64,000 bases of DNA from Bacillota bacterium (lineage in GTDB: Bacteria; Bacillota; Sulfobacillia; UBA8153): assembly GCA_040756655.1 (NCBI GenBank), contig JBFLYN010000005.1, positions 4,563-68,562 on the forward strand, given 5' to 3'. The notes under the pieces were generated by a model. The model was not told the origin of the DNA, ran no database searches, and worked only from the letters and a program-made list of their open reading frames with translations. The translations under genes and the position numbers were made by a program. Positions 15,333 through 24,667 of this stretch are shown in pieces (positions within the stretch are counted from its first letter, which is position 1; each line of letters begins with the position of its first letter).

Positions 15333-16377
15333 CCACTTCACTCCCCGACCATCTCTGCCTAAGCTGGCCGCATGCACCATCTACCTGGGTGCCTAGTTCG
15401 CGGCGCACTGTCACCGCCGTTCCAAAACCTTGGAGCGTGGCCACAAACGCCCGCACCCGTTCTGGAGGACTGCGGCGATAGCCACTGGCTTCCACCGGGT
15501 TCAAAGGTATGAGGTTCACATGACCTTGCACTGCCTTGACCAGCCCGGCCAGCCTCCTGGCATCCATTTCCCGGTCGTTGATCCCATCCACCAGGACATA
15601 CTCAAAGGTCACCCGGCGTCCGGTGGCCTTGGTATAATCGGCACAAGCCGCCACCAGTTGGTCGATGCTGGCCCGGCCCGCCGCCCCGGGCATGAGCCGG
15701 CGCCGGGTTTCATCATCGGCGGCGTGCAGGGAAACTGCCAGGTTCACCGGCAGTCCTTCCCGGGCCAGCCTCCGGATTTCCGGTACCATTCCGCAGGTGG
15801 AGATGGTGATGGACCGGTGACCGATGCCGGTTCCGGCCGGGTCGTGCAACTGCCGGATGGCCTTGAGCACTGGTTCGTAGTTATCCAGTGGTTCCCCGGT
15901 GCCCATCATCACCACCCGGCTCACACGCTGCCCGCTCCGGTCTTCGCTGATCCTCAATACCTGATCGACGATCTCGCCGCTGGAGAGGTTCCTTGCCCAT
16001 GACCTGCCGGAGGCGCAGAACTGGCAACCCATCCTGCACCCGGCCTGTGATGAGACACAGGCGGTAAGGCCGAACCGGTAGAGAAGCGCTACGGCTTCCA
16101 CCACCAACCCGTCTTCAAGGCGCATGGCATACTTTACCGACCCCGAGCCCTCGTCCTCGCGCCGCTCGTGTATCCAGCAGGCATCCAGCAGGGCCCCAGC
16201 GGATAGCTGCTCCCGGAAAGCTGCCGGCAAGTTGGTCATGGAGTCAAAGCTGCGGGCCTGCGCCGCATACATCCAGCGCCAAAGTTGTTTGGCCCGGTAG
16301 GGAGGTTGACCGTACGCTTTGCAGACCTGTTCCAGCTCACTCAGGGACTTGTCTTTGAGCCGCACCAGCCTGTTCAC
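15310..16377 (-). CDS. rlmN: 23S rRNA (adenine2503-C2)-methyltransferase RlmN (radical SAM)
   Basis: The GTG at 16377 has a GGAGAGG RBS. The protein starts VNRLVRLKDKSLSELEQVCKAYGQPPYRAKQLWRWMY and contains the CxxxCxxC motif (CRMGCQFC). Confidence 0.9.
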   Translation of the reverse strand: MNRLVRLKDKSLSELEQVCKAYGQPPYRAKQLWRWMYAAQARSFDSMTNLPAAFREQLSAGALLDACWIHERREDEGSGSVKYAMRLEDGLVVEAVALLYRFGLTACVSSQAGCRMGCQFCASGRSWARNLSSGEIVDQVLRISEDRSGQRVSRVVMMGTGEPLDNYEPVLKAIRQLHDPAGTGIGHRSITISTCGMVPEIRRLAREGLPVNLAVSLHAADDETRRRLMPGAAGRASIDQLVAACADYTKATGRRVTFEYVLVDGINDREMDARRLAGLVKAVQGHVNLIPLNPVEASGYRRSPPERVRAFVATLQGFGTAVTVRRELGTQVDGACGQLRQRWSGSEVDAGKRRQ

Positions 16378-16421
16378 TCCTGACCTCTCCTCACTATTCG
16401 TCCTTTTGACGGGCTTTCCTG

Positions 16422-17765
16422 CTAGGTATATTTGGCCAGTCTTGCCATGAAAAACCCGTCGGTGCCGTGGCGTTGGGGCCAGAGCTCTACGTATCCCCGG
16501 TCGGTCACGGCCCCTGTCAGCGAACTTGGGAGCCAAGGCCGGGGGTCGTCCAGCCGGAACTGGGGGTGGTCTTGCAGGAAACCTTCCACCACCCCGGGTC
16601 CTTCCGGCCCGGTCAGGGTACAGACGCTGTACACCAGCACCCCTCCGGGTCGCACGCAGGCGCTGGCTCCTTCCAGGAGCTCTCGCTGGAGGCGAGTAAG
16701 GCCGGGTATGTGCCGGGGCTTTTTGCGCCACCGCGCATCCGGGCGGCGCGCCAGCACACCCAGGCCAGAGCAGGGAGCATCCAGCAGCACCCGGTCAAAG
16801 ACCCAGCCTTGTGGCAGACGCCTGGCGTCTCCCTGGGTAACTTCTACGTGGCAAAGCCCAAGACGAAGGGCGTTTTCGCGAATCAGCTGCAACCGCTGCT
16901 CGTTGATATCGTTGGCCACCACTCGCCCGTCCACGCCTACCAGTTCGGCCAAGTGCATGGCCTTCCCGCCCGGCGCCGCGCAGGCGTCCAGCACTTCCTG
17001 GCCGGATTTAGGATCCAGGAGCTGGGCCACGATCATGGACGCTTCGTCCTGGACCTGGAAATGTCCCTGGGCAAACCCGGGTACCTGCCGGATGTTGCCC
17101 GGTGCTAGGAGTTCCACCGCCGCCGGGTGGTGAAGGCCGGTCTTCCAGCGGATGCCCTCGGCGTCCAGGCACCGGGTGAATGCGTCCACCCCGGTGCGGA
17201 GGGTGTTGATGCGAACCGTAAGTCGGGGCGGCTGGTTGTTCCACCGGCATAGCGACGCGGTCTCCTCAAGGCCGATCCTGTCCAGAAACACCGCCACAAT
17301 CCACTCGGGATGGGAGTGCACCAAGGCCAGGTGCTGGGCAGGGCTCTCGTCCAGGGCCGGGTATGGGAGTTCTTCTGCCCTGTGCCGGGATAGCCGGCGG
17401 AGAACGGCATTGACCAACCCGGTTAGCCAGCGCGGCTGGCGGTGGAGCAGCTTGACGGTTTCGTTGACTGCCACCGGGCCCGGGATGTTCTCCATGTACA
17501 GCAGCTGGTAGGCACCCAGCCTAAGAGCCGCCCTGACCCATGGGTCACAGCTGGCCAGCGGGCGGTTGAGATAGCGGGACAGGGCCCAGTCCAGCGTGTT
17601 TTGCCGCCGGACCGTCCCGTAGGCCAGCTCCGTGGCCAGTCTCCGGTCTGGCCCGGTCAGCTCCGGCAGGCCTTGAAGTACCGATTCCAGCGCCAAGTCG
17701 GCGTAGGCGCCCCTGGTGTCCACGGCGTGGAGAGTCCGGAGCGCCGCCTGGCGCGCGCCGGCCAC
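16422..17765 (-). CDS. rsmB: 16S rRNA (cytosine967-C5)-methyltransferase RsmB (Sun)
   Basis: GTG start at 17765. An N-terminal NusB-like domain (ARQAALRTLHAVDTRGAYADLAL) is followed by a SAM-dependent m5C methyltransferase domain (DACAAPGGK, PCSGLGV). Confidence 0.9.
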   Translation of the reverse strand: MAGARQAALRTLHAVDTRGAYADLALESVLQGLPELTGPDRRLATELAYGTVRRQNTLDWALSRYLNRPLASCDPWVRAALRLGAYQLLYMENIPGPVAVNETVKLLHRQPRWLTGLVNAVLRRLSRHRAEELPYPALDESPAQHLALVHSHPEWIVAVFLDRIGLEETASLCRWNNQPPRLTVRINTLRTGVDAFTRCLDAEGIRWKTGLHHPAAVELLAPGNIRQVPGFAQGHFQVQDEASMIVAQLLDPKSGQEVLDACAAPGGKAMHLAELVGVDGRVVANDINEQRLQLIRENALRLGLCHVEVTQGDARRLPQGWVFDRVLLDAPCSGLGVLARRPDARWRKKPRHIPGLTRLQRELLEGASACVRPGGVLVYSVCTLTGPEGPGVVEGFLQDHPQFRLDDPRPWLPSSLTGAVTDRGYVELWPQRHGTDGFFMARLAKYT

Positions 17766-17766
17766 C

Positions 17767-18447
17767 CTAGCGCCGGCGGCTGTCGCGCAGCACCAGCAAG
17801 CGCAAAAGCTGGGCCACTGCCATGGCCGTAGCTGCCAAGTAGGTGAGGGCGGCCGCATCCAGCACCGCACGGGTGGGCGGGACCTCACGGGACGTGATAA
17901 ACCCACCGGATTCCAGCAGGGCCAGGGCCCGCGACGACGCGTTCTTCTCTACTGGCAAGGTGACCACGTGAAAGAGCACTGCCGCGCCAAAGAGCACGAT
18001 CCCCAGGTTCATGAGGCCCATGCTGTCTATGAACAGCCCGATGAGAAACAAGGGAAACGCGGCCGAAGACCCAAAGCCGGCCACCGGCACCAGGCTGTTA
18101 CGCAAGTTCAGCGGGTAGTAGCCGGTATGGTGCTGGATGGCGTGACCTACCTCGTGGGCAGCCACTCCCAACGCGGCCACCGAGTTACTCTCGTACACGC
18201 CCGGAGATAGTCTCAGGATCCGCTGCCTGGGGTCATAATGATCCCCCAACGCCCGGTTGGTGCGTTCAACTCGCACGTTGTCCAGGCCGGCGTTGCGCAA
18301 AAGCTGCCTGGCCACCTCAGCTCCGCCCAGCCTGCTGGTGGACGCTACCCGCGAATAGGTGTCGAATGCGCCTCTGACCCGGGACTGGGCGTACAGGGCA
18401 AAGAGCAAAACGGGCAGCACCAGGATGAAAGTGCTGTCAAAGAACAT
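17767..18447 (-). CDS. YugP-like membrane zinc metallopeptidase (Zn_peptidase_2 family)
   Basis: MFFDSTFILVLPVLLFALYAQSRVRGAFDTYS...GDHYDPRQRILRLS...AAHEVGHAIQH aligns closely to B. subtilis YugP and carries the HExxH motif. Confidence 0.85.
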   Translation of the reverse strand: MFFDSTFILVLPVLLFALYAQSRVRGAFDTYSRVASTSRLGGAEVARQLLRNAGLDNVRVERTNRALGDHYDPRQRILRLSPGVYESNSVAALGVAAHEVGHAIQHHTGYYPLNLRNSLVPVAGFGSSAAFPLFLIGLFIDSMGLMNLGIVLFGAAVLFHVVTLPVEKNASSRALALLESGGFITSREVPPTRAVLDAAALTYLAATAMAVAQLLRLLVLRDSRRR

Positions 18448-19872
18448 CTACCCTCTCTCCTCTCCTTCTTCTTTCCCCAGGATCTGGCCGGGGAATACTG
18501 CGTGTCCTCGCAGGTACGCGCCGCCGTCCATGACCCGCCCACCCGCTGGCTGCACCTGGACCAGTTGCAGGCAGCCATCACCTGTGGCCACTACCGGCCC
18601 GCCATCTGCCAGCGTCACCACCTGGCCCGGCCGGGCAGCACCCGTCCCCGGGTAGAGCTCAGCCTCCCAGACTTTCAGCCGCCGGCCGCGGTCAAAGGTA
18701 TAGGCGCCGGGCCGCGGGTTCAGCGCCCGCACCTGGTTTCTCAGGGCCAGGGCCGGCCGGTTCCAGTCCATGATCTCATCCTCCGGGCCCAGCGGCGGTG
18801 CGTAGGTGGCGGCGGTTTCATCCTGGGGTACACGGGGAGCCTCCCCTTTAGCCACCAGTTCCAGGGTCTTCACCAAGAGCCCGGCGCTGACCACCGAAAG
18901 GCGGCGATGCAGGGTACCCGCGGTGGCATCCGGGGGGATGTCCACGGCTTCTTGCAGGATGATGTCCCCCGCATCCAACCTTCGCGTCATGTACATGGTG
19001 GTGACGCCGGTCCGGGTCTCCCCGGCCATGATGGCGCGCTGGATGGGGGCTGCCCCCCGGTACTTGGGCAACAAGGACGCATGAGCGTTGATGGCCCCCA
19101 GGCGCGGCACTTTGAGCATGGCCTCCGGGAGGATCTGGCCGTAGGCCACCACTACCAGCACATCGGGGGCCAGTTCCTCCAGGGACTCCACCAGCCCGGG
19201 AGATCGGCAAGATTCCGGTTGCCAGGTGTCCAGGCCCAGCTCGGCGGCGGCAAGCTTCACAGGCGGCGGCACCACCCCGGATGTGCGCCCGGACAGCCGG
19301 TCGGGCTGGGTGATCACCGCGAGTACGTGGTAGTGCCGTTCCAGGGCACGCAGTGCCGGCACGGCAAAATCCGGGGTGCCCAGGAACACTACTTTCAAGC
19401 CTGCAGACGCTGGCACTTCGGTGATCGACCGGGCCCGGTCCAGGAAGATGATGCCATCAAGGTGGTCCAGTTCATGCTGGAGCGCCCGGGCCAGCAAGTC
19501 TGCGCCCTCCACCCAAACCGGGCGGCCGTGGCGGTCCAGGGCACCTACGGTCACCCTGGCAGCCCGGGCCACCTCACCCACCAGGCCTGGCACGCTGAGG
19601 CAGCCTTCCACCGCCACTTCTTCGCCACTTCGGGCCACGATTTCAGGGTTGATGAGTTCGATGGGACCTTCGCCCACATCGATGACCACTACCCGCCGGG
19701 CCACCCCCACCTGGGTAGCGGCCAGTCCCACGCCGCTGGCTGCCTTCATGGTCTCCAGCATGTCATCAAGGAGCGTCAGCACTGAACGGGTGATGACCCG
19801 CACCGGACGGGCCTGGGTGCGTAGGGATGGATGGTCATACTTCAGGATTTCGAGTACGGCCAATGCTCTCAC
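18448..19872 (-). CDS. def-fmt: peptide deformylase (Def) and methionyl-tRNA formyltransferase (Fmt) encoded as one uninterrupted 474-aa ORF
   Basis: Residues 1-155 are Def (GVGLAATQVG, EGCLSVPG, QHELDHLDG). Residues from about 159 onward are Fmt (LKVVFLGTPDFAVPALRAL...HASLLPKYRGAAPIQRAI). There is no stop codon between the two; an internal TTG (LKVVF) or GTG could serve as a separate fmt start. Confidence 0.85.
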   Translation of the reverse strand: MRALAVLEILKYDHPSLRTQARPVRVITRSVLTLLDDMLETMKAASGVGLAATQVGVARRVVVIDVGEGPIELINPEIVARSGEEVAVEGCLSVPGLVGEVARAARVTVGALDRHGRPVWVEGADLLARALQHELDHLDGIIFLDRARSITEVPASAGLKVVFLGTPDFAVPALRALERHYHVLAVITQPDRLSGRTSGVVPPPVKLAAAELGLDTWQPESCRSPGLVESLEELAPDVLVVVAYGQILPEAMLKVPRLGAINAHASLLPKYRGAAPIQRAIMAGETRTGVTTMYMTRRLDAGDIILQEAVDIPPDATAGTLHRRLSVVSAGLLVKTLELVAKGEAPRVPQDETAATYAPPLGPEDEIMDWNRPALALRNQVRALNPRPGAYTFDRGRRLKVWEAELYPGTGAARPGQVVTLADGGPVVATGDGCLQLVQVQPAGGRVMDGGAYLRGHAVFPGQILGKEEGEERG

Positions 19873-19878
19873 CTACCG

Positions 19879-22266
19879 TCACATCATGAACACCGGGTCT
19901 GGGTCCACGGCCAGGCGTACCTTCTGCCCCTCGTGGGCCTCCTGGACCCGCAGTGCCAGTTCCAAAAGGGCGTCACGGTCACGGCCGGCCAGCAAGACCT
20001 GCCACCGGTAAGAGCCATGCAGCCTTGAGAGCGGCGCAGGCGCCGGGCCCAGCACCCTGACGCCCGGAACCGGCTCTCCCGCTGCCGCCCGGTGCGCCGC
20101 CCGGGCAACGGCCTCCTCGTCCGGCGAGGAGAATACCAAGTGTACCAGGTGGGTAAAGGGCGGAAAGCCCGCCTGCTCCCGCCAGGCCAGTTCCTGCCGG
20201 TAGAACCCCCCATAGTCGTGGGATGCTGCGGCCTGGATGGCATAGTGGTCGGGATGGTACGTTTGCACCAAGACCCGGCCCGGCCCTCCCCGCCCCGAAC
20301 GGCCGGCTACCTGGGTCAAGAGCTGGAAGGTCCGCTCGGCGCTGCGGAAGTCCGGGAAGTTGAGGCCCGTATCGGCAGTCACCACGCCCACCAGTTCCAC
20401 ACCGGGTATGTCCAGGCCCTTGGCGATCATCTGGGTGCCCACCAGCACTGCCCCGGGCGTGGACCTGAACTCTTCGAGGATTCGCTGGTGGGCACCCCGC
20501 CGCGCAGTGGTGTCCGAGTCCATCCGTAAGACCCGGGTGTTGGGCAGGCTTCTCTGGACCTCGGATTCCACCCGCTCGGTTCCGGCACCAAATCCCCGTA
20601 TGTAGCGGCTTTGGCAGACCGGGCAAGTGTCTGGCGTGTGCTGTTTGAAATCACAGTAGTGGCATCTAAGTTCCCGGCCCTGCCGGTGCAGGGTCAGGGA
20701 CACATCACACTGCGGGCACTGGATGACCAGTCCGCACTCGCGACAGAGCACAAAAGAGGCAAACCCTCGACGGTTCAAAAACAGCATGGCCCGGGCACCC
20801 TTCTGTACGACTTGTTCCAGGGCTTCCCCCAGTTCCCGGCTGAACATGCTCCGGTTGCCCGCTTTCATCTCGGCGCGCATGTCCACCACGGTAACAGGCG
20901 GCAGCTCCGCGCCGTCCACCCGGTGAGAGAGCGTCAATAGCTGGTATTCCCCGGAGGCGGCCCGGGTATATGACTCCAAAGAAGGGGTTGCCGACCCCAG
21001 CACTACCGTGGCCCGGTGCTGGAAGGCCCGCATGATGGCCACTTCCCGCGCATGGTAGCGGGGCGATTCTTCCTGCTTGTAACTGTATTCGTGTTCCTCA
21101 TCCACGATGATGGCGCCCAGGTGCCGGGCGGGCGCAAACACCGCGGAACGCGCGCCCACGATGACCCGGGCCCGGCCACCTTGCACCCGCTGCCACTCAT
21201 CGTACCTCTCACCCGTGGAAAGTGCGCTGTGCAACACGGCCACCTGGTCGCCAAACCGCTCCTGGAACCTGCCCAGGGTCTGCGGCGTAAGGGATATCTC
21301 GGGTACCAGCACGATGGCCTGGCGGCCTTCCTCCAGCACCTCTCCGATGAACCGCAGGTATACCTCGGTCTTGCCGCTGCCGGTTACCCCGTGCAAAAGG
21401 CACACCCCGGGTTTACGACGGTGGAGATCAATGATTGATTGTAACACAAATGCCTGTTCGGCGGTAGGCACAAAGGACACTACCGGGTCCTTCATGCCGG
21501 GAGCCGGCCGGCGAGGGAGCTCTGACTCCACCAGCCGCACCAGACCTTGCCCGGAGAGCCGGTCCAGGACCGGACGGGAGGTACCCTGGGCTGGCACCTT
21601 CCCGCCGGCTTCCACCAGGCGGCGCAGGAGCTCGGCCCGGCGGGGTGCCCGCTTGGCTTCACCCTCTGCTGCCTGGAGGGCCTGGTGGTCTGGAACCGCC
21701 AGCTCCGCGAAAACCTGCCGGCGAGAGCGGGCCCCCGGGGAAAAGGTAGTGTGGCGTTGCACCAGCTCCAGCGCCATGAGCCGGGCGAGCTCCGCCCGTC
21801 CTGCCCCGGTACTCTGCTCCAGTTCTGGTTGGGTCATGGCCCCGTGTTCGGCCAAGACCTCCAGGACACGGGCGCCAGCAGACGACAAGCCCCTGGGCTC
21901 CACCTCGGGCCTGCCCGGTGCGAGGGCGTACACGGTGCGGCCGCGATAGCGGATGACGGCCGGGAGCATGGTCCAAAGTACACTGGCCAGCGGGGCGGCG
22001 TAGTACCGCGACACCTCCCGGGCAAGACCGAGGAGCCCCTCTTCGTAGACGGGCTCCTCATCCAGCACGCTTTTTATGTCCCGGACTCCGGTCACCGGGC
22101 ACTGGTGGTCCAGGGCCACGATGACCCCGGTCACTTCCCTTGGACCCAGCGGCACTGTGACTCGCATGCCCGGGCGCGCCCTTTCTTCCAGCCTTGGGGG
22201 AATTCGGTAATGAAAGCCGGCCGAACGCAGCCCGCGAACGTCCACGGCCACCACCGCAAAAGCCAT
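19879..22266 (-). CDS. priA: primosomal protein N' (PriA helicase)
   Basis: 795-aa ORF with a 3'-DNA-binding N-terminus, a Walker A motif (GVTGSGKTEVY), a DEEH box and Cys-rich zinc-binding motifs (CRECG...CPQCD...CHYC...CPVC). Confidence 0.95.
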   Translation of the reverse strand: MAFAVVAVDVRGLRSAGFHYRIPPRLEERARPGMRVTVPLGPREVTGVIVALDHQCPVTGVRDIKSVLDEEPVYEEGLLGLAREVSRYYAAPLASVLWTMLPAVIRYRGRTVYALAPGRPEVEPRGLSSAGARVLEVLAEHGAMTQPELEQSTGAGRAELARLMALELVQRHTTFSPGARSRRQVFAELAVPDHQALQAAEGEAKRAPRRAELLRRLVEAGGKVPAQGTSRPVLDRLSGQGLVRLVESELPRRPAPGMKDPVVSFVPTAEQAFVLQSIIDLHRRKPGVCLLHGVTGSGKTEVYLRFIGEVLEEGRQAIVLVPEISLTPQTLGRFQERFGDQVAVLHSALSTGERYDEWQRVQGGRARVIVGARSAVFAPARHLGAIIVDEEHEYSYKQEESPRYHAREVAIMRAFQHRATVVLGSATPSLESYTRAASGEYQLLTLSHRVDGAELPPVTVVDMRAEMKAGNRSMFSRELGEALEQVVQKGARAMLFLNRRGFASFVLCRECGLVIQCPQCDVSLTLHRQGRELRCHYCDFKQHTPDTCPVCQSRYIRGFGAGTERVESEVQRSLPNTRVLRMDSDTTARRGAHQRILEEFRSTPGAVLVGTQMIAKGLDIPGVELVGVVTADTGLNFPDFRSAERTFQLLTQVAGRSGRGGPGRVLVQTYHPDHYAIQAAASHDYGGFYRQELAWREQAGFPPFTHLVHLVFSSPDEEAVARAAHRAAAGEPVPGVRVLGPAPAPLSRLHGSYRWQVLLAGRDRDALLELALRVQEAHEGQKVRLAVDPDPVFMM

Positions 22267-23466
22267 CTATCTCCCCTCACTCCAGAGGACCTTGACCCGG
22301 TCGAGGATCACGTGGGCCAGTTTCGTCTTGGGCATCAGGGGGATCTCTTCGGTAGCCCCGGCACTTACCAGGGTGACCTGGTTGTCATCACTGCCAAACC
22401 CGATTCCGGCCCGGGATACGTCATTGGCAAAGACCAAGTCCACGCCTTTTTTCTCCAGCTTGGCCCGGGCCGCCGCCACCACCTCGGTAGTCTCCGCCGC
22501 GAAGGCTACCAGCACCGGCCGGGGCGAAAGACCCGCCAGCTCCTTGATGATGTCCGGGTTCTCCGTCAGCTCCAGGGTGCAGGGGCCGGCCTGTCTTTTG
22601 ATTTTTTCCGCCCGGCGCTCCTTGGGCGCAAAATCCGCCACCGCGGCGGCCATGATCACCGCATCGCTGCCCGGGGCCGTATCCAGCATGGCCTGCCGGA
22701 GTTCAGAAGCAGTCTCAACGTGGATGGTCTTTACGCCCAGCGGCGGCCTAAGGCTAACCGGGCCGGTCACCAGGACCACCCGGGCCCCCCGGTCACGGGC
22801 CGCGGCAGCCAGGGCATAGCCCATTTTGCCCGACGACCGGTTGGAGAGGTACCGTACCGGGTCCAGGGGCTCCACCGTGGGACCTGCACTCACCACCACC
22901 GTGCGGCCCACCAAGTCATGGGGATAGGCGATCAGGGCAATGACCTGCTCCACCACCTTTTCGGGACCGGGGAAGCGGCCCTGCCCGTAGGCGCCCGAAG
23001 CCAGCCGTCCATACTCAGGCTCCATAAAATGGTACCCGATGCCCTGAAGGCGGCTGATGTTTTGCCTGACTATGGGATGAGCATACATGTTGTGGTTCAT
23101 GGCCGGGACCACCAGCACCGGAGCCCGGGTGGCCAGCAGGGTGGTGGAGATGAAATCGTCGGCAACGCCCGAGGCCAGCTTGCCGATAATGTTGGCGGTG
23201 GCCGGAGCGATCACAAAGAGGTCGGCACGCTCGGCCAGTGCGATGTGCTCCACGTTCCAGTGCTTGGGCTCGGCAAACATGTCCAGGATCACCGGGTTGT
23301 GAGCCAGGGTGCGGAAAGTCAGCGGTGTGACGAACTCGGTGGCAGACCGGGTCATGGCCACGTGGACAGTCGCCCCCAGCTGCACCAGCTTGCTGGTCAC
23401 GTCCACTGCCTTGTAGGCGGCAATTCCCCCGGTCACGCACAGGCCAATCGTCTTTCCATGCAACAC
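22267..23466 (-). CDS. coaBC: bifunctional phosphopantothenoylcysteine decarboxylase / phosphopantothenate-cysteine ligase CoaBC
   Basis: The GTG at 23466 follows a GGAGGTGG RBS. The protein begins VLHGKTIGLCVTGGIAAYKA (flavoprotein domain) and continues into a CoaB domain. Confidence 0.9.
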   Translation of the reverse strand: MLHGKTIGLCVTGGIAAYKAVDVTSKLVQLGATVHVAMTRSATEFVTPLTFRTLAHNPVILDMFAEPKHWNVEHIALAERADLFVIAPATANIIGKLASGVADDFISTTLLATRAPVLVVPAMNHNMYAHPIVRQNISRLQGIGYHFMEPEYGRLASGAYGQGRFPGPEKVVEQVIALIAYPHDLVGRTVVVSAGPTVEPLDPVRYLSNRSSGKMGYALAAAARDRGARVVLVTGPVSLRPPLGVKTIHVETASELRQAMLDTAPGSDAVIMAAAVADFAPKERRAEKIKRQAGPCTLELTENPDIIKELAGLSPRPVLVAFAAETTEVVAAARAKLEKKGVDLVFANDVSRAGIGFGSDDNQVTLVSAGATEEIPLMPKTKLAHVILDRVKVLWSEGR

Positions 23467-23544
23467 CAGATACCACCTCCCTGAGGAAAATCGAGGCACA
23501 GAGACTTGTTCAATCCCCGTGCCTTTGTCAAACACCGTCTCCGT

Positions 23545-23748
23545 CTACCGATACCTCGGGCGTGCGTCGGTCACGACCACGCTCCCGTCTGCGATCTCGT
23601 TGAGCGCCAGCGTTACGGGTTTGTTGGACCCCGGGCCTCCCGCCTCGCGGCCCTCCTCCAAGAGCTGCCTGGCTCTTTTGGCTACCGCCACAACCAGTGG
23701 GTACCTGGAGTGCTGACGGACTAGCTTGTCCAAGGATGAAAACTGCAT
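23545..23748 (-). CDS. rpoZ: DNA-directed RNA polymerase subunit omega
   Basis: The ATG at 23748 gives [33 protein letters not shown].... The start shares one nucleotide with the gmk TGA stop (TGATG). Confidence 0.85.
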   Translation of the reverse strand: MQFSSLDKLVRQHSRYPLVVAVAKRARQLLEEGREAGGPGSNKPVTLALNEIADGSVVVTDARPRYR

Positions 23749-24401
23749 CACTTTACGCCAACCTCCCCGGTGTCCAGGTACGCCCCCAACAGGTCCCTTT
23801 GGCGGAAAACCCTGGCCCGCTCCGCCCATACTATGGCACGCAGTTCGGCAGCCGCTCGGTCTAATTGGTCGTTGACGATTATGTAATCGTAACGGCCGGC
23901 ATACTCCACTTCCGCCTTTACTCTCGACAGGCGGAGGCAGATGTCTTGCTGGCTCTCGGTGCCCCGGTCCAGGATGCGGCGCTTTAGTTCGTCCAGGGAC
24001 GGTGGTAGCACGAAGACAAACACTCCGTCGGGATAGCGCTTGCGCAAGGCCACAGCTCCCTGCACATCCTTTTCCAAAAGGACATCGGTGCCGGCGGCCA
24101 TGAGCTCTTCCAGCGGCCTCTCAGGGGTTCCGTAACGGTGACCGAAGACCAGCGCCCATTCCACGAGCTCATCCCGCTCTACCAGGAGATCAAATTCCTG
24201 GCGCGTCACGAACGTGTAATCCACACCGTTGGACTCACCAGCCCGGGGCGGGCGAGTGGTGACCGAAGGGCAAAACCGGATCCCGGCTTCACACTTGAGT
24301 AGCGCCTGGCGCAGGGTCCTCTTGCCGGCCCCCGAGGGGGCAGAGAGCACCACCAGCAGTCCCCGGCGCTTAGGGCCGGCCGCTTTACAGGAAGCACTCA
24401 C
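23748..24401 (-). CDS. gmk: guanylate kinase
   Basis: The motifs [23 protein letters not shown] and [14 protein letters not shown] are present. The GTG start overlaps the remA stop in a GTGA arrangement. Confidence 0.9.
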
Positions 24402-24667
24402 TCTTGCGCAGGCTCCTCGCCACTTTCCTTGGATACCAGGCGGTTGGCAACCGTCTCAGGCTGGACCGCCGACAGGACTACATGATCTGAGTCAGTGATG
24501 ATCACTGCCCGCGTCCGGCGCCCGTAGGTAGCATCGATCAACATCCCGCGATCCCGGGCTTCGGTTATTATCCGCTTTATTGGTGCTGATTCCGGGCTGA
24601 CTATGGCTACGATGCGGTTGGCTGACACGATGTTACCGAAGCCAATGTTGATCAGCTTGATGTCCAT
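24398..24667 (-). CDS. remA: RemA/YlzA (DUF370) extracellular matrix and biofilm regulatory protein
   Basis: [34 protein letters not shown] is almost identical to B. subtilis RemA over this segment. A GGAGGG RBS is present. Confidence 0.9.

Follow-up and report, generated by a model that had tools for sequence, protein, structure and literature searches.

Are the peptide deformylase (Def) and the methionyl-tRNA formyltransferase (Fmt) of a Bacillota bacterium encoded by one gene? The question is raised by 64,000 nucleotides (nt) of contig JBFLYN010000005.1, hereafter the window, in which a reading made from the letters alone (the sequence-only reading) had placed def and fmt in a single uninterrupted frame and proposed a true Def-Fmt polypeptide. 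Fmt acts on Met-tRNAfMet before initiation, and Def acts on the nascent chain at the ribosome exit. Our computational analysis leads us to regard the locus as, very probably, a genuine bifunctional def-fmt gene: one frame would encode a 471-residue protein holding two enzymes, each half would do its usual job, and the gene would have originated when def lost its stop codon.

The minus strand from 18448 to 19872 forms one open reading frame (ORF) without a stop, 474 amino acids long when counted from a GTG, both in the ORF listing and in our own reading of the DNA. The strand itself had not been given by the sequence-only reading. The end of Def, QHELDHLDGIIFLDRARSITEVPASAG, and the beginning of Fmt, LKVVFLGTPDFAVP, lie in the same frame with no stop codon between them. 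On the minus strand the junction reads GAC CGG GCC CGG TCG ATC ACC GAA GTG CCA GCG TCT GCA GGC TTG AAA GTA GTG TTC CTG GGC ACC CCG and encodes D R A R S I T E V P A S A G L K V V F L G T P. The ORF and all Pfam and NCBIfam matches agree on this one frame, so that the uninterrupted frame is confirmed, while its length needs a small correction. Translation probably starts at TTG 19863, which we prefer over GTG 19872 (19872..19870) because the GTG falls inside the Shine-Dalgarno sequence AGGTGA, because the TTG pairs better with the anti-Shine-Dalgarno sequence (duplex energy -7.0 versus -2.4 kcal/mol), and because the resulting 471-amino-acid protein is an exact match to NCBI MEW6522646.1 (P0001), named “MAG: methionyl-tRNA formyltransferase [Bacillota bacterium]”, where MAG stands for metagenome-assembled genome. 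This start also yields a typical Def N-terminus, MAVLEILKYD. The proposed length of 474 residues thus gives way to 471, and the proposed sizes of about 52, 17 and 34 kDa become, on recalculation, 50.1 kDa for the fusion, 16.5 kDa for the Def part and 33.7 kDa for the Fmt part. Residue numbers below refer to the 471-residue frame unless 474-residue numbering is named; Pfam residue ranges are those of the 474-residue ORF.

Profile searches recognize both enzymes within this frame. Pep_deformylase (PF01327) matches residues 7-150 (E = 1.4e-45; 155.1 bits against a cut-off of 22.8; profile positions 2-153 of 156), followed by Formyl_trans_N (PF00551; residues 160-335, E = 1e-40) and Formyl_trans_C (PF02911; residues 362-457, E = 8e-25). 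The NCBIfam model TIGR00079 (pept_deformyl) scores 149 bits against a cut-off of 103.95, and the fmt equivalog TIGR00460 scores 282.1 bits against 201.5 over model positions 1-305 of 315, beginning at residue 159 in 474-residue numbering, which is the junction TTG. With these domain scores, the match is therefore far above what a chance ORF would be expected to give. Antisense to def-fmt runs a 515-amino-acid ORF (18238..19785, plus strand) with no Pfam match; it is the usual long shadow ORF of a genome with 64% GC and not a gene.

The metal ligands of Def are one cysteine and two histidines, its catalytic residue is a glutamate, and its motifs are GxGxAAxQ, EGCLS and HExxH. In Fmt, R42 (R193 in the window) lies in insertion loop 1 and recognizes the initiator tRNA, and the catalytic Asn, His and Asp lie in the HxSLLPxxRG region. 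We aligned the window protein to E. coli Def and Fmt reference sequences, whose numbering reproduced the published catalytic residues (Table 1); identity in this alignment is 48% for Def and 45% for Fmt. In an alignment of 104 fused homologues (A1), the catalytic columns of both enzymes are invariant or at least 90% conserved; the Def motif residues are invariant, as are S263, L265, P266, R269, G270, D297 and R193 of Fmt. From these comparisons, both halves are predicted to be complete enzymes with their catalytic residues kept, and the protein to be bifunctional.

An AlphaFold2 model built on A1 has a mean predicted local distance difference test (pLDDT) score of 95.3 and a predicted template modeling (pTM) score of 0.73. 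Foldseek places its N-terminal third on B. cereus Def1 (1ws0; 151 columns, TM-score 0.96, root-mean-square deviation (r.m.s.d.) 0.9), and its C-terminal two thirds on the Fmt structures 4iqf (B. anthracis), 2fmt (E. coli) and 1fmt (310-315 columns, TM-score 0.95, r.m.s.d. 1.5). No solved chain in the PDB covers both the Def and the Fmt parts, by sequence or by fold. Between the two enzymes, a strand at residues 146-149 is followed by the block of lowest internal confidence (151-160, pLDDT 78) and then by Fmt strand beta1 (157-162); because these modeled strands flank it, the real linker appears to comprise only about six residues, V150-G155. The last 15 or so residues, to 18451, form an acidic tail of low confidence (pLDDT 72 and 42 in the last two blocks).

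The Def half lacks a feature known from E. coli, where a basic C-terminal helix (residues ~148-165) anchors Def on the ribosome at uL22 and bL32 (PMC12690207). In the window protein this ribosome-docking helix is not present: the match to E. coli Def extends no further than residue 145, and between the Def core and Fmt there is only the four-residue strand and the six-residue linker. Unfused Clostridia-type relatives also lack the helix, as in the tail ...DRAVRIYKKE* of a UBA3572 locus (L002). Because these tails are equally short, the absence of the helix reflects the lineage and was not caused by fusion.

An open junction in a MAG could also be an artefact, in which a stop codon or one-nucleotide indel at the def/fmt boundary was lost and the real genome holds two genes. 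The junction sequence lends this some substance, as cTTGAaa holds a TGA in another frame, like the common NTGA overlap of def and fmt, and unfused loci most often show a gap of -4. Yet an independent Logan assembly, of run SRR29635773, matches the window letter for letter along 16,103 bases, def-fmt included. The sequence-only reading had proposed checking relatives for a stop at the junction; the three closest, at 72-75% identity and drawn from NCBI, Logan and JGI, are all open in frame, with equal linker length and variable linker sequence (Clostridiales bacterium UBA8153, L081; a Logan run, L082; a JGI metagenome, L083). More widely, of the 120 best homologues in a collection of 5.8 billion proteins, 104 unite the three Pfam domains in a single chain of ~440-610 amino acids. 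These homologues, at least 104 clusters at 90% identity, are 41-75% identical to the window protein and come from NCBI, JGI, ENA, MGnify and Logan. Among them are finished isolate genomes, namely Thermaerobacter marianensis DSM 12885 (P0027, CP002344) and Exiguobacterium isolates (P0098 cluster).

Codon substitutions argue in the same direction. Over junction codons 141-170, differences between the window and L081, L082 and L083 at codon positions 1:2:3 number 5:4:15, 5:5:13 and 9:6:13, and the whole gene compared with L081 gives 90:67:206; a similar third-position excess at these codons appears in comparisons with L082-L084. The excess is continuous through the junction, and selection therefore acts on the frame straight across it. 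Some database “fusions” do look erroneous: P0172, P0188 and P0234 have Arg/Pro/Ala-rich junctions such as HEIDHIDGLRLRRPPVPAQARPHEAQ, resemble out-of-frame translations of the Def C-terminal helix, and are likely frameshift errors, unlike the window's junction. Given the identical second assembly, the conserved in-frame junction and the codon-position pattern, we rejected a frameshift or sequencing artefact, to which we give almost no weight. Together with the intact catalytic residues, the conservation of the fused frame in independent assemblies and isolate genomes supports the proposal of a true single Def-Fmt polypeptide.

Would this polypeptide be the only source of Fmt? The junction TTG (19398) occupies the Met1 position of Fmt, and the sequence-only reading had allowed for an internal restart there, with GCAGGC as a weak Shine-Dalgarno-like element. 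In that case ribosomes would also start at TTG 19398 and make a free 34-kDa Fmt beside the fusion, so that the ancestral two-protein state would be partly kept. The codon is one that serves as a start elsewhere in the operon, including for def-fmt itself, and fmt of the nearest unfused relative in our sample (L002) starts with a TTG in the same frame, 15 nt past the def stop; some recent fusions even retain an ATG and a Shine-Dalgarno-like spacer (L089). The upstream sequence, however, offers no anti-Shine-Dalgarno pairing, and the suggested element fails on this count: its energy of +0.5 kcal/mol, compared with -7.0 kcal/mol at 19863, is weaker than that of 94% of 1470 ATG, GTG or TTG codons internal to the window's long ORFs. 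Our scans found no promoter-like site in 16000..24500, and none inside def-fmt, which also holds no terminator-like site. TTG is a common Leu codon here, at 14.6% of Leu codons in 13 neighboring genes and 6 of 55 within def-fmt.

The relatives do not keep a start codon at this position. The Met1 codon is CTG in L081-L083, L086 and Thermaerobacter; other fused lineages have TTC (Phe), CCC or CCT (Pro), CTA or ATC, and few fused loci have a canonical start (GTG in L087, TTG in L091, ATG in L089). Of 38 fused chains that serve as representatives at 50% identity, 18 have L at this residue and 4 have M; the others have P, Y, F, V, H, Q, I, D or N. Because the codon is not a start codon there, in several fusions Fmt activity would come only from the fused chain. 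TTG 19398 is most likely an ordinary Leu codon whose start-likeness is incidental, and a conserved internal start does not appear to be a property of Def-Fmt fusions; a designed restart is unlikely. Anti-Shine-Dalgarno energies, the relatives' codons and local Leu usage thus set aside the restart as a designed or conserved feature and leave room for occasional initiation, and we consider production of a free Fmt by this route improbable.

A single chain could still be cut at the linker by a cellular protease into separate mature enzymes. No other internal segment of the model is as uncertain as the linker (pLDDT 78), close relatives differ in linker sequence, and a Zn metallopeptidase gene directly follows def-fmt; relatives, however, have this gene in the same place, and it tells nothing particular about cleavage. 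In the model, the six-residue linker sits between a Def beta-strand and Fmt strand beta1 and would be poorly accessible. The linkers of fused families span ~0 to more than 60 residues and share no cleavage motif, and the Exiguobacterium fusion functions in E. coli without a partner protease (PMC12690207). We therefore hold a polyprotein to be very improbable, and favor a Def-Fmt chain that stays whole.

To place the origin of the fusion, we compared it with unfused loci of GTDB species genomes that served as a control, found by a scan with the fused alignment and universal Def motifs; this sample is non-random and not a measure of prevalence, does not contain the window's own species, and consists mostly of unfused loci among the matches listed. 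In these unfused loci the commonest arrangement is a 4-nt overlap of def and fmt in different frames. At least 22 of ~70, though, have def and fmt in the same frame, apart by only a stop codon and 0-18 nt, and in such loci one substitution in the stop would therefore create a fusion with the old spacer as linker. A pair from the Lachnospiraceae/Ruminococcus lineage illustrates this step. Unfused Ruminococcus sp. AF46-10NS (L027) reads ...GAA GAA GAC TAA aggcgggataat ATG (spacer agg cgg gat aat), and the fused P0088/L089, 87% identical to L027, reads ...GAA GAA GAC TCA AGG CGG GAT ACG ATG. The def stop TAA has become TCA, and the Shine-Dalgarno-like spacer and the ATG are kept as linker; either L089 fused very recently, or the fused contigs contain a sequencing error.

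The nearest unfused locus to the window clade in the sample is L002, 51% identical, where def and fmt are in the same frame and joined by TGA, 15 nt and TTG. From the conserved DRA to the Fmt start it has 13 positions versus 11 in the window, nearly the same spacing. The fusion most likely arose, on these comparisons, through loss of the def stop in a tight, same-frame priA-def-fmt-rsmB operon whose genes stood a few codons apart.

Sequence relationships further indicate that Def-Fmt fusions arose several times, at least three or four. In a comparison of Def plus Fmt, the Exiguobacterium fusion is 55% identical to unfused Bacillales versus at most 47% to any fused protein; the P0088 group has the unfused L027 (87%) as its nearest relative; and P0103, P0104 and P0109 are closer to unfused Lachnospiraceae or Clostridiales. 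Because unfused relatives are closer, the origin in each of these three cases is clearly independent, and the window clade's fusion arose separately from that of Exiguobacterium. A neighbor-joining tree of concatenated Def and Fmt (100 bootstraps) supports the window clade (92) and the P0012 clade (100). Its deep nodes are without support, with a bootstrap of 1 for a 78-member all-fused group, and for this reason the tree does not tell one event from several for the window clade, the P0012 clade, the Thermaerobacter group, the Fermentithermobacillaceae group and the group with long acidic linkers. UBA8153, with a protein 74% identical to that of the window, is assigned by NCBI to Family XVII, as is Thermaerobacter, and a shared fusion origin of the window clade and Thermaerobacter is plausible.

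Def-Fmt fusions are rare per genome and numerous in absolute terms. One fused locus stands among ~74 classified in the matches listed from the non-random GTDB sample, and a published survey of 5,042 reference genomes found four Exiguobacterium genomes with the fusion (PMC12690207). A 191-residue query spanning the junction, run against 1.84 billion representatives at 50% identity, gave 22 matches at E <= 1e-30, and of its best 150 matches at least 38 are fused chains.

Several other database records caught our attention. P0197, P0200, P0242, P0273 and P0302 (336-408 amino acids) carry two tandem Pep_deformylase domains by Pfam and are Def-Def fusions; clustered peptide deformylase genes are described in Rhodobacterales, in a paper where we did not find tandem-domain proteins discussed (PMC12690207). 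P0192 (529 amino acids) joins a C-terminal part of chorismate synthase to a partial Def with a basic C-terminal helix and the beginning of Fmt, and is probably a chimeric or frameshifted gene call. In the Exiguobacterium P0098 cluster (L090), some genomes list a 306-amino-acid “methionyl-tRNA formyltransferase” beside the 461-amino-acid fused form. The difference in length puts the start of the short form at the Met of F-M-GTPEF, past strand beta1, which points to starts that were called inconsistently or to genes that are split in some strains. Labels conflict as well: among P0017/P0126 and P0018, proteins of one 90%-identity cluster are labeled “Ignavibacteriales bacterium” and “Bacillota bacterium”, and a close relative of the P0012 group is labeled “Chloroflexota bacterium”. 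The taxonomic labels of these MAGs are therefore probably unreliable, and the apparent phylum spread of the short-linker fusion calls for caution.

This kind of fusion is already known. It was described and validated in Exiguobacterium in 2025 (Mol Biol Evol; PMC12690207), the one paper mentioning a def-fmt fusion that our literature search found, and the window protein itself is in public databases, under-annotated. With the def-fmt fusion of E. alkaliphilum, E. coli delta def-fmt is fully freed of its growth defect (PMC12690207), and one chain can therefore supply both activities. Like the window protein, the Exiguobacterium fusion (P0098 cluster, L090) has Def N-terminal, followed by the N- and C-terminal domains of Fmt, in ~460 amino acids, lies downstream of priA and upstream of rsmB, and keeps all catalytic motifs. 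Its Met1-equivalent codon, CCT, is not a start codon. The two proteins are nevertheless only 43% identical. The Exiguobacterium junction is different and shorter (TDKLVETEATP-RVVF), with a linker unrelated to the window protein's. No Zn_peptidase_2 gene follows its def-fmt, unlike in the window, and its genome holds a second peptide deformylase. In our case tblastn found no second def or fmt within the 64-kb window. What is new here is that the lineage of the window, which is distinct from Exiguobacterium and apparently larger, and many others carry the fusion, that the fusion of the window clade is independent of that of Exiguobacterium, that the junction TTG seems incidental, and that stop loss is the evident route.

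Another of the closest known counterparts is Thermaerobacter marianensis P0027, a 550-amino-acid protein that NCBI names “methionyl-tRNA formyltransferase” and UniRef names “Multifunctional fusion protein”. It belongs to the same short-linker class, with 32 residues from HExDH to the GTP motif, comes from a high-GC member of the Bacillota, and shares the gene order coaBC-priA-[def-fmt]-Zn_peptidase_2-rsmB-rlmN; related MAG proteins include that of UBA8153 (P0002). P0027 shares 50% identity with the window protein, is extended at both its N- and its C-terminus, and carries in its linker a conserved V-E-L-P-P-E motif that the window clade lacks. Our literature search found no paper on Thermaerobacter and deformylase, and the genus is absent from the available parts of the PMC12690207 supplements.

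Separate def and fmt genes, as in the def-fmt operon of E. coli and the priA-def-fmt-rsmB cluster of B. subtilis, have the same order, neighbors and catalytic residues as the window, but also a stop, a Shine-Dalgarno sequence and a dedicated start between def and fmt, none of which the fused gene has at its junction. ArnA and 10-formyl-tetrahydrofolate dehydrogenase likewise join an Fmt-like two-domain module to a second enzyme in one chain; there the partner is C-terminal and works in the same pathway on the same substrate, whereas in the window it is N-terminal and would reverse the modification on a different substrate. ArnA matches the Fmt part of the window protein at E 1e-48. As a candidate ArnA family member, the window protein reaches 184 bits against a cut-off of 777, and it belongs to neither the ArnA nor the 10-formyl-tetrahydrofolate dehydrogenase family.

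The gene lies in a conserved Bacillota cluster, gmk-rpoZ-coaBC-priA-[def-fmt]-Zn_peptidase_2-rsmB-rlmN-PP2C-PASTA kinase-rsgA-rpe, and priA upstream and rsmB downstream flank it in all fused relatives examined (Table 1). Loss of the def-fmt TAG would add Zn_peptidase_2 as a third module; in L082 and L083 these two genes overlap by 14-17 nt. For rsmB, the longest ORF has 494 amino acids from GTG 17906 and overlaps the Zn-peptidase gene by 140 nt (17766..17906, minus strand). We favor the 447-amino-acid form from 17765, which is the gene call in the Logan assembly and has Pfam matches beginning at residue 4.

Table 1. Features of the def-fmt locus and its neighbors in the window, and residues aligned to E. 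coli Def and Fmt.
Feature	Window coordinates	Strand	E. coli residues	Description or window residues
priA	19879..22266	-		Pfam PriA domains; TGA stop 15 nt ahead of def-fmt start
Shine-Dalgarno AGGTGA	19869..19874	-		5 nt upstream of TTG start
def-fmt coding sequence	18448..19863	-		471 codons from TTG 19863 plus TAG stop 18450..18448; predicted bifunctional peptide deformylase / methionyl-tRNA formyltransferase
Def domain, residues 1-149	19417..19863	-		PF01327; ends in short beta-strand S146-E149
Linker V150-P-A-S-A-G155	19399..19416	-		Takes the place of the usual def stop and short spacer; no stop, no Shine-Dalgarno sequence
TTG codon, Leu156 (Leu159 in 474-residue numbering), Fmt Met1 position	19396..19398	-		TIGR00460 model position 1 aligns here
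Fmt N-terminal Rossmann-type formyltransferase domain	18868..19395	-		PF00551; carries R193, N259, H261, D297
Fmt C-terminal beta-barrel (tRNA-binding) domain	18502..18789	-		PF02911
Zn_peptidase_2 gene	17767..18447	-		PF04298, E 1e-84; ATG 18447 directly after def-fmt TAG, no spacer, same frame
rsmB, 447 amino acids	16422..17765	-		Pfam NusB and Methyltr_RsmB-F; gene call in Logan assembly
Def motif I			G43, G45, L46, Q50	G44, G46, L47, Q51 (G44-V-G46-L47-A-A-T-Q51)
Def motif II			E88-G-C90-L-S92	E86-G-C88-L-S90
Def motif III			H132, E133, H136	H130-E131-L-D-H134
Fmt catalytic/recognition residues			R42, N108, H110, D146	R193, N259, H261, D297

How would such a protein work? In our model, one mRNA frame read from TTG 19863 would give 471 residues comprising Def (the N-terminal ~150), the six-residue linker and two-domain Fmt (the C-terminal 316). 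The Fmt half would formylate Met-tRNAfMet with 10-formyl-tetrahydrofolate, and the metal-dependent Def half would strip the formyl group from nascent chains, the two acting independently on their normal substrates with no channeling. The sequence-only reading had expected a fusion to physically couple formylation and deformylation. What the fusion couples is expression and inheritance; catalytic coupling or channeling between the active sites we rejected on first principles, as the substrates (an aminoacyl-tRNA and a nascent peptide) and the times of action differ. Fusion would fix 1:1 synthesis of both activities, and would also link them in a fail-safe manner: because Def is upstream in the chain, Fmt would never be made without Def, and truncating mutations in def would also remove fmt. 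Joint loss of both is a viable combination because E. coli delta def-fmt grows, though poorly (PMC12690207), and loss-of-function mutations in fmt make deformylase inhibition tolerable (PMC2859245).

Several points weigh against this account. The 50-kDa species, its activities and its stability are predictions from the gene. With a pTM of 0.73 and a dip in pLDDT at the linker, the model does not fix how the two domains are oriented to each other. The boundary TTG is a usable start, and low-level internal initiation is possible; likewise, the paralogue check covers 64 kb only, and a standalone def or fmt may lie elsewhere in the genome. Finally, the selective advantage, whether stoichiometry or fail-safe, is an argument, and the fusion may be a neutral by-product of operon compaction.

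A further-reaching proposal, which we consider possible though rather unlikely, is that an old and large clade of high-GC thermophilic Bacillota (Thermaerobacter/Family XVII and allied MAGs) relies on the fusion as its sole Def and sole Fmt, that the near-rigid tether is functional, and that selection keeps the fail-safe. If so, the six-residue tether might bring Fmt to the ribosome together with Def, or might alter the access of Def, which here has no E. coli-type anchor helix, to nascent chains. In either case selection would maintain the fusion to ensure that there is no formylation without deformylation.

Our analysis establishes the open junction as biology, not error, and corrects the annotation. 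Public records name the protein Fmt only, and because this name hides the deformylase, def could be mistakenly recorded as absent from these organisms in a survey of genomes. For work on deformylase inhibitors and resistance by loss of fmt, it is a caveat that the two genes would not be lost separately by truncation here. The uses are modest: the gene provides a natural single-chain construct with which to examine how Def and Fmt interact, and a lineage marker. Overall, the Def-Fmt fusion, so far reported as an oddity of one genus, is recurrent, with dozens of clusters at 50% identity.

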